Translations under genes and position numbers: made by a program | Assembly (NCBI GenBank): GCA_016235825.1 | Contig: JACRIL010000102.1 | Location: forward strand, 751 to 64,750 | Direction of reading: 5' to 3' | Length of the DNA: 64,000 nucleotides | Origin: Planctomycetota bacterium | GTDB taxonomy: Bacteria > Planctomycetota > Phycisphaerae > SM23-33 | Part shown: in pieces, positions 54,474 to 56,958 of the stretch | Position numbering within the stretch: position 1 is the first letter of the stretch | Layout of the letters: the number at the start of each line of letters is the position of its first letter | The notes under the pieces: model-generated | The model's input: only the letters and a program-made list of their open reading frames with translations | Told to the model about the DNA's origin: nothing | Databases searched by the model: none

Positions 54474-55001
54474 TCACTTTCCCGCCCGCTCGTTGCAGCT
54501 ACAACGGGGGTCCGCGCAGGGCTTCGCCGCCGCGGACAGCTTGCGGTTCATCCACCGCCATCCCAAGAAAAGCGACAGGAACGTAAGGACCGCGCACAGC
54601 GGCTTGGCCAAGGGCAGAAACCAAGCACCCAGCAGGTTGAGGTAGACCGCCAACATAGGCGAGCCGCAGCAGCCGGTCAGGAAGCAGCCCGCCACGGCCA
54701 ACACCCCGCCAAGGGACAGTCCACCAAGGGCGGCGGTCCCGGCGGCGCGCTGGCGATGCTCTCGATAGCGCCGCACAGCCCAGGCCACAAAAGCGCCGGA
54801 CATTCCATACGAGATTCCCATCCAGTAATCCTGCGCCCGAACATACTGGTCCATCCCTGATATGGATGAGACGGTTTGGACCGTGGCCCACCGGTCCTGC
54901 GCCGAGTCGTGCTCGGGGTACAGACCGCGAAGCACAAAGTGTCCCACAGCCACGGCCAGGAAGACTGCCAGCGGCAGAATCATTCGACGTAGGGGTCGCA
55001 T
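54474..55001 (-). CDS. small membrane protein with intramembrane vicinal cysteines (LTGCCGSP) and C-terminal CxxxxCxC
   Basis: 4 predicted TM helices. Start overlaps the end of the upstream gene by 22 nt (operon). Possible metal(loid) handling, by motif analogy only. Confidence 0.6.
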   Translation of the reverse strand: MRPLRRMILPLAVFLAVAVGHFVLRGLYPEHDSAQDRWATVQTVSSISGMDQYVRAQDYWMGISYGMSGAFVAWAVRRYREHRQRAAGTAALGGLSLGGVLAVAGCFLTGCCGSPMLAVYLNLLGAWFLPLAKPLCAVLTFLSLFLGWRWMNRKLSAAAKPCADPRCSCNERAGK

Positions 55002-56581
55002 GTGGCGGTCTCCGTTGTGGGCTGGGCTTTACGTACGCTCTTGGCCACGAAAACGAGCTTCCCGCCGATCTGCCGTGCCTCGCCTTCGGCGCGGACAAGG
55101 GTTTTTACCCCAGGCATCCCGCCCGTCCAGCGAACCGGCAACGTCAGTTTCGCGCATGTTACGGTCTGGCACTCCTCCCATTCCTGACGGTCGATCAGGG
55201 CCAGCATGTTTTCGCCAGGCGAGACGGAGCTGACGATGCCTTCGACCGTCACCAGCCCCGGATAGCGGTCCACGTTTCGCATGTACTGGTCCACCCCCAA
55301 CACGACCGGCCTTGTCGCGACCGGCCCGCCAACACGGGGCGCCGGCCATTTCTGAACTGCCCAGACGATCGCGACGACGGAAACCAGTCCGAGTACGCAA
55401 GCCAACACGATCCATTTTCTCATCTGAGTGCCTTTCTTGCCGGGAATGCACGATTCGCCTTGGCAGGAGCAGGCTTCCGATGTGCCTCGCTCCGGGGCGG
55501 CGTCTTGCACATATGGCTCGCCGGATGCCAGCGACCGTTCCGCGCGGGCCAGTTCTCTGCCCAGATAAGCCGCATGGTCCAGCCGTGAGACAAGGCCCTT
55601 GTCGATGGCAGGCAGGTAAACTTCGGCGGCGCTGCGGCCTTCGATCACCGTGTCCAGCACGCCCTCGTTGGCGTAATGCTCCATATTCAGGCGACGTTTC
55701 TGCCGGTCCGCATATATTACAAAGTAGCCGGCCGGGTCAGGGGTCATCTTCGCCGGGATGGAACCTCGAACGGTCGGCACAATCCGCGCATCGGAGTACG
55801 GTTCTGCGGGACCTGGGTTCCGGACAGCGATCTTTCGGGCGGCGGCCAGGATAGCTGCCGTGCCGTTTTCGCCGATCATGTCGATTACTTCCACCGTCTG
55901 CCGGAAGTGCTCGACGGCACTTGAGGAGATGTTCCGCAGGAATGGCCGCCTGCCTTTGGCGGCGACGATTCGGCCCTCGGCATCCACGCCCGATTGCGCC
56001 AACGCCAGAAGCGATTGGCCTGGCAAGTGCCCGACGGCCTGCCGGGAGTCCTCGCCGCAGACAATCAGGAAGCGGATATTGGGATTGGCCAAGACGTTGT
56101 GAATAACCCGCTCGATGCCCAGGTTTTCGGTCTGCATCATGCCGACGATGGCGATCTCCGGGCTCGCGGCCTTGGCAATCGCAACGGACAGGCCGCTGTC
56201 GGTGAGCGTGCAGACGGCCACGGGCGCTTGATAGCGCAAGGCCGCGTAGTCGCCCGCCAGGGGCGGCCAACCGGCGCGAAGTTCGACCGGACCCGCCGGG
56301 CAGGCTTCGCCTTCGATATTCAAGGCGTTCATCGCCGCGGCCGGATGGCATTCCTGGCAGCCGAGGCAGTCGTATCGCGCCTCAACCAACTTGGCCTTAG
56401 CCGCTCCAATCGCCTCGGCCAACTTTCCGGGTTGCCGGCCGGCGGGGATGGCCCGTTCGATAGCTTTCAGCGTGCCGTGCAGGCAACCGCACGCCCAGCA
56501 CTTGGCTGAACTGGCGGCGTGCCGCAGTTGACGGACGGCCTCTTCAACATCGCCTGATTTCGCCTCGCCCGGCTCGCTCAT
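54980..56581 (-). CDS. MtrA-like corrinoid-binding protein (homologue of tetrahydromethanopterin S-methyltransferase subunit A) with N-terminal Cys-rich domain, TM anchor and C-terminal extracytoplasmic domain
   Basis: Residues ~100-215 (GWPPLAGDY…VAVCTLTDS…QTENLGIERVIHNVLANPNIRFLIVCGEDSRQAVGHLPGQSLLALAQSGVDAEGRIVAAKGRRPF) align by recall almost motif-for-motif with archaeal MtrA (GWPVVxGDY…VAVxTLxS…TENLGIEKxxANxISNPNIRFLxxCGxEVQGHxxGQSxxALxxNGxD), including the cobamide His ligand. N-terminal CWACGC…CLGCQEC. Single TM helix at ~400. ATG overlaps the arsR stop (ATGA). Confidence 0.75.
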   Translation of the reverse strand: MSEPGEAKSGDVEEAVRQLRHAASSAKCWACGCLHGTLKAIERAIPAGRQPGKLAEAIGAAKAKLVEARYDCLGCQECHPAAAMNALNIEGEACPAGPVELRAGWPPLAGDYAALRYQAPVAVCTLTDSGLSVAIAKAASPEIAIVGMMQTENLGIERVIHNVLANPNIRFLIVCGEDSRQAVGHLPGQSLLALAQSGVDAEGRIVAAKGRRPFLRNISSSAVEHFRQTVEVIDMIGENGTAAILAAARKIAVRNPGPAEPYSDARIVPTVRGSIPAKMTPDPAGYFVIYADRQKRRLNMEHYANEGVLDTVIEGRSAAEVYLPAIDKGLVSRLDHAAYLGRELARAERSLASGEPYVQDAAPERGTSEACSCQGESCIPGKKGTQMRKWIVLACVLGLVSVVAIVWAVQKWPAPRVGGPVATRPVVLGVDQYMRNVDRYPGLVTVEGIVSSVSPGENMLALIDRQEWEECQTVTCAKLTLPVRWTGGMPGVKTLVRAEGEARQIGGKLVFVAKSVRKAQPTTETATCDPYVE

Positions 56582-56958
56582 TTGTGTCGGTCCTTGGAGT
56601 CTTCCATCAGGCACAAGCCCCGTTCGAGGAGGTCAATGATGCAGGGGTCCATAATGCAATAGCGGATACTGTTGCCGTCTCGCCGATTGCACAGGATGCC
56701 GCGGTCAACCAACCGTTGAAGTTGATTGGAAATGCCCTGCGGCTTCATGCCCACCTCCTCAGCCAATGCCGACACGGGCATTTCTCCGTCGCGAGCCAGG
56801 GCGTGGAGGATGCGAAGCCGCGTATCGTTGGCCAACACCTTGAAGACGCCGGCCAGTTCGCCGGCTTCGCCCCGTTCGATCAACGGACGCTTCTTGATGC
56901 TCGGCTTGACCGGACAAGGCTTGGGCGGACAAGCGTAATTGCCAGATTGCTTCTTCAT
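56578..56958 (-). CDS. ArsR/SmtB-family metal-sensing transcriptional regulator
   Basis: …FKVLANDTRLRILHALA… wHTH. Cys residues at both termini (CPPKPC; C…C…C). Confidence 0.85.
   Translation of the reverse strand: MKKQSGNYACPPKPCPVKPSIKKRPLIERGEAGELAGVFKVLANDTRLRILHALARDGEMPVSALAEEVGMKPQGISNQLQRLVDRGILCNRRDGNSIRYCIMDPCIIDLLERGLCLMEDSKDRHK

Follow-up and report, generated by a model that had tools for sequence, protein, structure and literature searches.

The operon described here lies on the minus strand of a 64,000-nucleotide (nt) stretch of a Planctomycetota genome (contig JACRIL010000102.1, positions 751 to 64,750), referred to below as the window. It comprises three overlapping genes: arsR, a middle gene encoding a corrinoid enzyme of the MtrA type, and gene 3 (g3), encoding a small membrane protein. 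We propose that these genes form an ArsR-controlled module for thiophilic metal(loid)s, in which the corrinoid enzyme most likely methylates the metal(loid), as an analogue of HgcAB that employs a different corrinoid fold; we hold this reading with about even confidence. The favoured candidate substrates are Hg(II) and As(III)/Sb(III). A farther-reaching version is possible, if distinctly more tentative: the combination of a Cys-rich domain, an MtrA-type domain and DUF4346 would then constitute a second corrinoid family, unrelated to HgcA, that methylates Hg(II) and/or As, Sb, Se and Te, is fed by a Cys relay and is switched by ArsR. The module is best described as combining the logic and accessory genes of the HgcAB type with a non-homologous corrinoid fold and another domain composition. 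The proposal builds on sequence and genomic context, namely on domain identities, conserved residues, operon structure, the operator, gene fusions and shared accessory genes.

To our knowledge, no genetic marker other than hgcAB is established for mercury methylation by microbes. Methylmercury has also been reported in oxic waters and soils in which hgcAB is scarce. The enzyme family described here is unstudied and mis-annotated as a methanogenesis subunit; it takes the same operon slot as HgcAB and ArsM-like enzymes and shares their type of regulator and their accessory proteins. It is found widely among bacteria that are not methanogens, with known aerobic lineages (Nitrospirales, Planctomycetota) among them. 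If the family does methylate mercury or metalloids, the set of organisms and habitats regarded as producing methylated toxic species would shift, the formation of methylmercury or methyl-metalloids where hgcAB is absent would gain a candidate genetic basis, and new marker genes would become available: the enzyme, the pair formed by g3 and the gene for an OB-fold protein, and a defined operator. Even with another substrate, the shared OB/g3 pair would provide a new handle on what HgcAB evolved for. The question is directly testable in Fontivita pretiosa B-254 (locus L003), a cultured host of the module. In the literature searched, we found no mention of DUF4346, nor of bacterial MtrA homologues in connection with ArsR or metals, and no characterised member of the enzyme family.

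The corrinoid enzyme

A preliminary description of this DNA had pointed out the similarity of the middle protein to MtrA, subunit A of the archaeal tetrahydromethanopterin (H4MPT) S-methyltransferase, including the cobamide-ligating His, and this similarity is well founded. The MtrA model PF04208 matches amino acids (aa) 102-259 with 140.1 bits (cutoff 25, E=7.6e-41), the solved structures matched by the protein are MtrA chains only (PDB, E ~1e-30), and the domain has the Rossmann-like MtrA fold. Residue conservation of the enzyme was computed over 77 sequences from more than 12 phyla. H185 aligns with His84 of MtrA and E152 with Glu54, both being invariant; in MtrA these residues are the lower axial cobalt ligand and its hydrogen-bond partner, respectively (PMC4915002). 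The meander consensus of MtrA, 109-GAIPF-Y/F-xEN, corresponds to G210-R-R-P-F-L-R-N217 in the window, in which G, P and N are kept and the Glu is replaced. Next to E152 and H185, the invariant residues of this domain are C124, G210, R212 and N217.

The N-terminal domain contains the motifs C28-x2-C31-x-C33(-x-H35) and C72-x2-C75-x2-C78...C94-P. Its richness in Cys, already remarked upon earlier, turns out to be a trait of the whole family: C28, C31, C33, C72, C75 and C78 are invariant and C94 is conserved in 99% of the sequences. The AlphaFold2 model of the domain is helical, with pLDDT values mostly above 85, and no Pfam or PDB relative was found, also when searched with a family profile.

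Between the MtrA-type domain and the end of the enzyme part lies a DUF4346 domain of beta/alpha architecture, which had been overlooked in the preliminary description. D282, E301, H302, R333, H336, Y339 and E343 are invariant in it. The C-terminal region of TIGR00284 matches this part of the protein at 2e-11, and no solved relative was found with the family profile. The domain might be the site of the methyl donor or of the substrate. It is followed by a short Cys-rich tail with the consensus CGCGSxCG, in which C371, C373 and C378 are conserved in 64%, 83% and 68% of the sequences, respectively. The coordinates of all elements are listed in Table 1.

Table 1. Genes, protein domains and regulatory region of the operon, in window coordinates.
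Feature	Position	Strand	Basis or remarks
arsR, 126-aa ArsR/SmtB-family winged-helix repressor	56578..56958	-	Open reading frame (ORF) and hidden Markov model match
Middle gene (fused enzyme, transmembrane (TM) helix and OB domain), 533 aa from ATG	54980..56581	-	ORF and domain matches
g3, 175-aa membrane protein with 4 TM helices	54474..55001	-	ORF and AlphaFold2 model
N-terminal helical Cys-rich domain, aa 1-100	56282..56581	-	Candidate iron-sulfur (Fe-S) and/or metal(loid)-binding domain
MtrA-type Rossmann corrinoid-binding domain, aa 102-259	55805..56278	-	H185, E152, G210-x-R-P-x-L-x-N217
DUF4346 domain, aa 282-360	55502..55738	-	PF14251, E=1.8e-22
Cys-rich cytoplasmic tail of the enzyme part, C371, C373, C378	55448..55471	-	Conservation
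TM helix, aa 386-411, former signal anchor of the OB gene	55349..55426	-	AlphaFold2 helix 386-411
Extracytoplasmic OB-fold domain, aa 427-518, CxxxxC pair C471, C476	55028..55303	-	Fold similarity and conservation
Promoter/operator region 5' of arsR, imperfect inverted repeat	56968..57017	.	Inverted repeat, palindrome and hexamers

Conservation of the operon

Of 8,000 scored candidates, 2,654 clusters belong to the enzyme family at E<=1e-3. When one genome was scanned for each species, at least 216 relatives came to light, and 80 loci were analysed. These span the Planctomycetota, Verrucomicrobiota, Acidobacteriota, NC10, Nitrospirota, Desulfobacterota, Chloroflexota, Myxococcota, Alpha- and Gammaproteobacteria, Bacteroidota, Ignavibacteria, Gemmatimonadota and Bacillota. 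The canonical gene order, found in more than 12 phyla, is arsR, the Cys-rich/MtrA/DUF4346 enzyme, the OB gene and g3.

The combination of a metalloregulator, a corrinoid carrier and a thiol membrane protein, put forward earlier for the window alone, is a recurrent one. In 55 of 71 loci the gene immediately preceding that of the enzyme, on the same strand, is ArsR-like, and overlaps of 4 nt between the genes recur in the relatives (gene calls including six metagenomic contigs). A membrane protein with vicinal Cys residues is encoded downstream of the enzyme in 43/67 loci. This partner is g3 in 26 of the 67 and a CcdA/DsbD_TM-like NPCC protein in 13, eleven of which are preceded by a TM-anchored thioredoxin (Trx)-like CGC protein. 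In the remaining four, all Nitrospirales, it is a bona fide MerT (for one of them, a Pfam check gave 36.6, with the cutoff at 32.9). The swapped partners represent a non-orthologous displacement at one operon position, and the fact that vicinal-Cys membrane proteins displace each other points to a Cys relay for thiophilic species.

An OB/g3 pair in common with HgcAB and ArsM-like enzymes

The strongest link to metal(loid) methylation is found in the accessory genes. In a survey of metagenome contigs seeded with g3, the OB gene was located directly upstream of g3 in 64/67 loci. Of 61 loci, 54 had an MtrA-like partner enzyme (downstream of g3 or fused to it in nine), two had HgcA and two an ArsM-like enzyme alone; three had none. 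In the proteins P0320, P0360 and P0355, g3 is fused ahead of a CdhD-type corrinoid domain with the cap-helix signature of HgcA ('GINVWCAAGKG' in P0320). P0320 passes the HgcA equivalog model NF040863 (434.7 versus 275) and P0360 passes the HgcAB-like fusion model (341 versus 285). The locus of P0320 (L087) and L088 have the order arsR, OB gene, g3::hgcA, hgcB. The OB gene of L087 matches the OB family of the window at E=3.7e-35, with the same CxxxxC, and its HgcB scores 126.9 with NF040864 (cutoff 99). In L089 an OB gene precedes a g3::HgcAB-like fusion, and L109 and L115 are further HgcA/HgcB loci with the same operon partners.

ArsM-like enzymes are found in the same setting. In L090 the place of the enzyme, before OB and g3, is taken by an ArsM-like selenoprotein, and an ArsM-like gene follows g3 in L092 and L093. 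The module had been described as distinct from ArsM and HgcAB systems, and for the corrinoid fold and the domain composition it is, whereas the accessory OB and g3 genes are shared with both.

As a side observation, the ArsM-like genes L090:3755-4510 and L092:5518-6270 contain an in-frame TGA ('DNWAE[TGA]MGGA' and 'DAWST[TGA]IAGA'), which aligns with a Cys of the L081 homologue ('SWANCVAGA'). Their products are probably selenocysteine-containing enzymes. The best NCBIfam matches, to ArsM-domain selenoprotein models, stay below cutoff, as the proteins lack the second domain.

The TM helix and the OB domain stem from a neighbouring gene

The single TM helix of the middle protein had been likened to the membrane anchor of MtrA, and its C-terminal part regarded as an extracytoplasmic extension of the enzyme. 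Typical relatives are soluble proteins of ~385 aa, which consist of the Cys-rich N-domain, the MtrA-type domain and DUF4346 and lack both TM helix and OB domain. In the genome loci, aa 393-533 have their counterpart in a gene of its own, signal-anchored and ~140 aa long, between the enzyme gene and g3; among the 67 loci whose sequence extends far enough downstream, 27 have such an OB gene at that position. The ORFs of enzyme and OB protein share one reading frame in L001 and L002, the closest genome relatives, with a TGA and 2-3 codons between them; the stop is TAA in L047 and L062. The separating stop has been lost in the window, in five other metagenomic proteins and in L016. The TM helix and OB domain of the window protein are therefore a normally separate downstream gene that became fused by stop-codon loss, M386 being the ancestral start of the OB gene. 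Since the helix belongs to the fused gene, it is not homologous to the anchor that MtrA itself possesses. The extracytoplasmic domain does exist, as an OB fold, but not as a part of the enzyme proper.

The OB domain shows the fold similarity of a five-stranded beta-barrel, and its CxxxxC pair is conserved in 82-85%. The fusion implies that in the window the enzyme is tethered to the membrane beside g3. Selenocysteine insertion or readthrough at the TGA of L001 and L002 was considered and rejected, with TAA at the same junction in other loci and an ATG within 2-3 codons.

The membrane protein g3

The AlphaFold2 model of g3 (pLDDT 80.5) has helices at residues 2-27, 59-86, 93-108, 115-124 and 126-159. 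The vicinal Cys pair reported earlier is part of an invariant set at the outer end of TM3, consisting of C106 and G-C111-C112-G-S-P. H21 is conserved as well, and the C167-x-C169 of the cytoplasmic tail is conserved in ~65%. No Pfam family is assigned to g3, and its profile gave only 249 matches against 1.84 billion protein representatives.

The protein had been called reminiscent of MerT. This holds as an analogy, in that g3 combines vicinal Cys residues in a TM helix with a cytoplasmic Cys pair, but does not extend to homology. MerT models (PF02411, NF010314) and the MerT sequence of Tn501, checked against plasmids, were used for the comparison. PF02411 gives 10.8 bits on g3 (cutoff 32.9, E=0.51); it matches 9/60 g3 homologues at E<=1, the best at 8e-4; and hhalign of g3 with Tn501 MerT gives a probability of 8%.

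Fusions of g3 to the enzyme occur in both orders, as MtrA-like::g3 (P0065, P0085, P0244) and as g3::MtrA-like with the complete Cys-rich/MtrA/DUF4346 set (P0283, P0303, P0344, P0351). This places the enzyme in the cytoplasm, both termini of g3 inside and the OB domain outside. In a metagenomic protein of 316 aa (P0268) the g3 domain is fused straight to DUF4346, without an MtrA-type domain in between; unless this protein is an artefact of assembly, DUF4346 may by itself be an interaction partner of g3.

The ArsR regulator and its operator

The regulator of the window matches NF033788 with 75.0 bits (cutoff 55) and the Pfam families HTH_20 and HTH_5. All 49 operon-linked orthologues have C106 and C116, and 84% of them have C15; these three are candidate sensor cysteines. 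The terminal Cys clusters noted before are thus real in part, the N-terminal C10 as well as C90 and C101 being unconserved. At the alpha3 site, a single Cys remains in the consensus of the orthologues (ELCV), and loci farther removed show ELCVCD.

Upstream of arsR, two inverted-repeat arms (56968-56988 and 56997-57017) surround a core palindrome, TTACA(C/T)-N-(A/G)TGTAA at 56984-57001, which overlaps sigma-70-like promoter hexamers at 57015-56988 and 57002-56973. The palindrome ATTACAC-N4-6-GTGTAAT is present upstream of arsR in many loci. The pattern TTACA[CT]-N2-10-[AG]TGTAA occurs once in the 64-kb window and has 33 matches in 930 kb of the 80 related loci. Of these matches, 32 lie within 900 nt upstream of an mtrA-like ORF; the remaining one, in L016, falls 5 nt inside the stop-to-stop ORF. 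The conserved palindrome is a putative autoregulatory operator of ArsR, and regulator, operator and enzyme are a dedicated, horizontally mobile unit. A second inverted repeat (57028-57039/57066-57077; 12 nt, 92% complementary, 26-nt spacer) is located in the intergenic region between arsR and the deoxynucleoside kinase (dNK) gene.

The residues of the sensor and the relay also bear on the possibility that the module handles cobalt or corrinoids, with the MtrA-like protein storing, chaperoning or sensing cobamide, a Co/Ni-type ArsR and membrane proteins for import. We consider this very unlikely. The residues in question are soft-metal Cys and not the His/Asp/Glu of Co/Ni sensors. No cob, cbi or btu genes were found in the window or in the conserved neighbourhoods of the relatives, and no cobalamin riboswitch in the 64-kb window. 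Cobalt handling would also leave the accessory genes in common with HgcAB and ArsM-like enzymes unexplained.

Metal and metalloid context in the relatives

Recurrent neighbours of the relatives are P-type ATPases (15 loci) and CzcA-type RND pumps (12 loci), as well as MerR-family regulators, ArsC, SHOCT proteins and S-adenosylmethionine (SAM) methyltransferases. MerC, an HMA protein, MerR and a CopZ-type protein are encoded 3-6 kb upstream in L085 and L086. In L081-L083, an ArsM-like methyltransferase and a TPMT are inserted in the operon. An island in a Nitrospirales metagenome-assembled genome (L041:6299-15998) encodes MerR, MerT, a small Cys-rich protein, ArsR, the MtrA-like enzyme and DJ-1/PfpI, and continues with a second ArsR, an ArsI/CadI-like VOC protein (VCCYA motif), ArsC, Acr3 and a P-type ATPase. 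No MerA is visible in the 9 kb of this island, and the MtrA-like gene occupies the position expected for merA.

The Nitrospirales loci could suggest a redox or thiol relay for metal stress, in which the enzyme would be a low-potential reductant that converts Hg(II) to Hg(0) as a substitute for MerA, or part of an electron feed like that of Scs or CcdA/ResA. We regard this as quite unlikely. The enzyme does stand in the MerA slot after MerR and MerT, and CcdA/DsbD_TM-like and Trx-like proteins do replace g3 and OB in the 13 loci mentioned above. However, the Trx-like partners have CGC instead of a redox CxxC, no corrinoid metal reductase is known, and the invariant His-on site together with the HgcAB/ArsM-like association fits methyl transfer better.

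The reverse reaction is unlikely as well, if somewhat easier to reconcile with the data: Co(I) would take the methyl group from methylmercury (MeHg+) or methylarsenite (MAs(III)), or would dehalogenate halomethanes, with the relay delivering the organometal. The combination of a corrinoid with a putative Fe-S domain is what Co(I) chemistry needs, the L041 island includes an ArsI/CadI-like gene, and the MAs(III) permease ArsP is likewise characterised by vicinal Cys residues within a TM helix. Heterologous HgcAB has also been reported to dechlorinate CCl4 besides methylating Hg (bioRxiv 10.64898/2026.04.26.720869). On the other hand, the co-operonic ArsM-like and TPMT methyltransferases suggest methyl addition, no acceptor is encoded for the removed methyl group, and halomethanes need no Cys relay.

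The role given in the databases, that of an H4MPT S-methyltransferase subunit A in the H4MPT-dependent C1 metabolism of planctomycetes, is hardly credible. Besides the database names, it can draw on NF002128, the best NCBIfam match of the middle protein, and on the occurrence of DUF4346 on archaeal dihydropteroate-synthase-like proteins (TIGR00284). The NF002128 score of 459.5 stays below the equivalog cutoff of 568, and the MtrA equivalog TIGR01111 is not passed either (127.7 versus 249). Some of the phyla in which the family is present are not known for H4MPT pathways (e.g. Pedobacter, Chloroflexota, Bacillota), and the family's conserved partners are a metalloregulator and Cys-containing membrane proteins. 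As stated before, mtrB-H are not found nearby: neither these nor other H4MPT genes are present in the window, where the neighbours of the operon are housekeeping genes, among the 40 most widely shared clusters within 6 kb in the 80 loci, or in 13 Pfam-annotated contexts. A location in a C1/H4MPT island is contradicted by every context test and was rejected; the relatives reside in Hg, As and heavy-metal contexts instead.

Among the side observations, a CopZ-N-terminal 'CC' protein recurs near the operon in Verrucomicrobia-type contigs (L081, L085). L081:11561-12082 encodes such a putative Fe-S metallochaperone (NF047645, 145.9 bits versus a cutoff of 100), and the zf_CopZ gene L085:4717-5226 was called from precomputed Pfam only.

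Proposed mechanism

A methyl-transfer model is favoured because the enzyme holds the slot of HgcAB and ArsM-like enzymes in sister operons, has a His-on site and is preceded by an ArsR with sensor-type Cys residues. An ArsR dimer would sit on TTACAC-N-GTGTAA, the conserved operator overlapping the promoter, and would be released when a soft metal(loid) binds to C106, C116 and C15. Outside the cytoplasmic membrane, the TM-anchored OB domain with its CxxxxC would form a Cys relay with C106, C111-C112 and the cytoplasmic CxC of g3. Such a relay could either bring the metal(loid) inwards, as MerP/MerT do, or export the methylated product in the manner of ArsP. The MtrA-type domain is expected to hold its cobamide on H185, in the conserved site. 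The 7-Cys N-domain could carry an Fe-S cluster that activates Co(II) to Co(I), a substrate site of three Cys, or both, and DUF4346, in some operons together with the ArsM-like SAM methyltransferase, may provide or assist the methyl donor. Finally, CH3-Co(III) would methylate the metal(loid) bound on the Cys-rich tail. What we infer in this scheme is the binding of cobamide and Fe-S, the identity of inducer, substrate and methyl donor, and the direction of transport.

Several points weigh against methylation of a metal(loid) by this module. The binding of cobamide and of Fe-S by the enzyme is predicted from its sequence. The classical alpha3 site ELCVC(D) is absent from the ArsR of the window, which has GEMPVSAL there. 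No methyl-donor enzyme (MtrH or a MeTr-type pterin-binding protein) is conserved nearby. In 24/67 loci there is no Cys-membrane partner within 2.5 kb, which makes transport dispensable for the enzyme. The membership of g3 in the MerT family was rejected, with Pfam and NCBIfam scores far below the cutoffs and the low hhalign probability given above, and no informative structural neighbour of g3 was found. The context of the relatives points to both Hg and As. Methylation of Hg(II) is not an obvious detoxification. Moreover, the physiological role of HgcAB itself is disputed, so that the analogy does not fix the reaction.

Comparison with known systems

HgcAB is the closest parallel. Both systems combine a corrinoid protein, a Cys/Fe-S redox partner and a membrane domain with an ArsR-family gene directly upstream, hgcAB being co-transcribed with an ArsR-like regulator (bioRxiv 10.1101/2022.10.17.512643; PMC7438021). 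Both have a Cys-rich C-terminal tail (...TCCS in HgcB, CxCxxxxC in the window enzyme), and in some lineages the identical OB and g3 genes flank or are fused to bona fide HgcA/HgcB. In contrast, HgcA has a CFeSP/CdhD-type domain (PF03599) with the Cys cap helix NVWCAAGK, whereas the window enzyme has the His-on Rossmann domain PF04208; PF03599, NF040863 and NF040864 have no match in the window proteins, which accordingly do not qualify as HgcA or HgcB. HgcB is a 2x[4Fe-4S] ferredoxin, and the window enzyme has the 7-Cys helical domain in the same chain instead. The family of the window also differs in its extra DUF4346 and in its presence in many aerobic lineages.

The corrinoid iron-sulfur protein of the Wood-Ljungdahl pathway (CFeSP, AcsC/AcsD) is alike in that a Cys-ligated cluster domain, putative in our case, and a corrinoid domain are united in one protein. 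The C-x2-C-x2-C-x15-C spacing of the N-domain resembles the [4Fe-4S] motif of AcsC, C-x2-C-x4-C-x16-C. The corrinoid fold is another one, there is no TIM-barrel partner here, and the context is metal resistance versus acetyl-CoA synthesis.

The MtrA comparison covered the archaeal subunit of MtrA-H and the cytoplasmic MtrA homologues (PDB 5laa, 5l8x). Unlike archaeal MtrA, the window enzyme lacks MtrB-H partners and is under a metalloregulator. The Cys-rich N-domain and DUF4346 are absent from MtrA, and C124 is specific to the bacterial family. The MtrA structure paper merely notes homologues in some bacteria (PMC4915002).

With the uptake path of mer operons (MerP, MerT/MerC/MerF, MerA) the module shares the succession of an outer Cys-pair protein, a vicinal-Cys membrane protein with a cytoplasmic Cys pair and a cytoplasmic enzyme with Cys-rich termini, and in the Nitrospirales loci a true MerT stands in for g3. 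The components differ: MerP has a ferredoxin-like fold versus the OB fold here, the regulator is of the MerR type versus the ArsR type, g3 is not detectably homologous to MerT, and MerA is a flavin disulfide reductase versus a corrinoid protein. ArsM and ArsP systems are likewise controlled by ArsR, and ArsM-like (seleno)proteins share an operon with the MtrA-like enzyme or substitute for it. The window operon, in contrast, has no SAM methyltransferase and its methyl carrier would be a cobamide, and g3 is unrelated to ArsP in sequence.

Gene junctions and other features of the window

The three minus-strand ORFs and their junctions are as initially drawn. The ATGA at 56578-56581 contains both the stop of arsR and the start of the middle gene, and the middle gene and g3 overlap by 22 nt, from 55001 down to 54980. 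The g3 start at 55001 is supported by R6, which is conserved in at least 90% of the g3 homologues. No terminator was found 3' of g3 on the minus strand. The NCBI record identical to the middle protein reads 'MAG: DUF4346 domain-containing protein [Planctomycetes bacterium]', and the product of g3 is listed as a hypothetical protein. The operon is flanked by genes for a PDZ protein, the dNK, panC, panD, lgt and a PDZ protease.

An 844-aa fusion of an FGGY kinase and an amidohydrolase is encoded at 47955-50489 (+), ~4 kb 3' of the operon and on the opposite strand. Separate amidohydrolase and FGGY genes occur at the equivalent position of the HgcA-type locus L087 (8834-11668), which may be remnant synteny; it was dropped as evidence, with an identity of only ~33%. 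Three 2-kb stretches of the window (4001-6000, 10001-12000 and 20001-22000) have a G+C content of 0.50-0.53, compared with ~0.61 window-wide, and could be of foreign origin or non-coding. The Acido-Lenti-1 RNA motif (RF01687) occurs twice, at 32212-32257 (-) and 32356-32401 (+), on opposite strands ~100 nt apart, with both copies scoring above the gathering score. A 6S RNA (RF00013; 49.2 bits, above the gathering score) is located at 13878-14028 (+).

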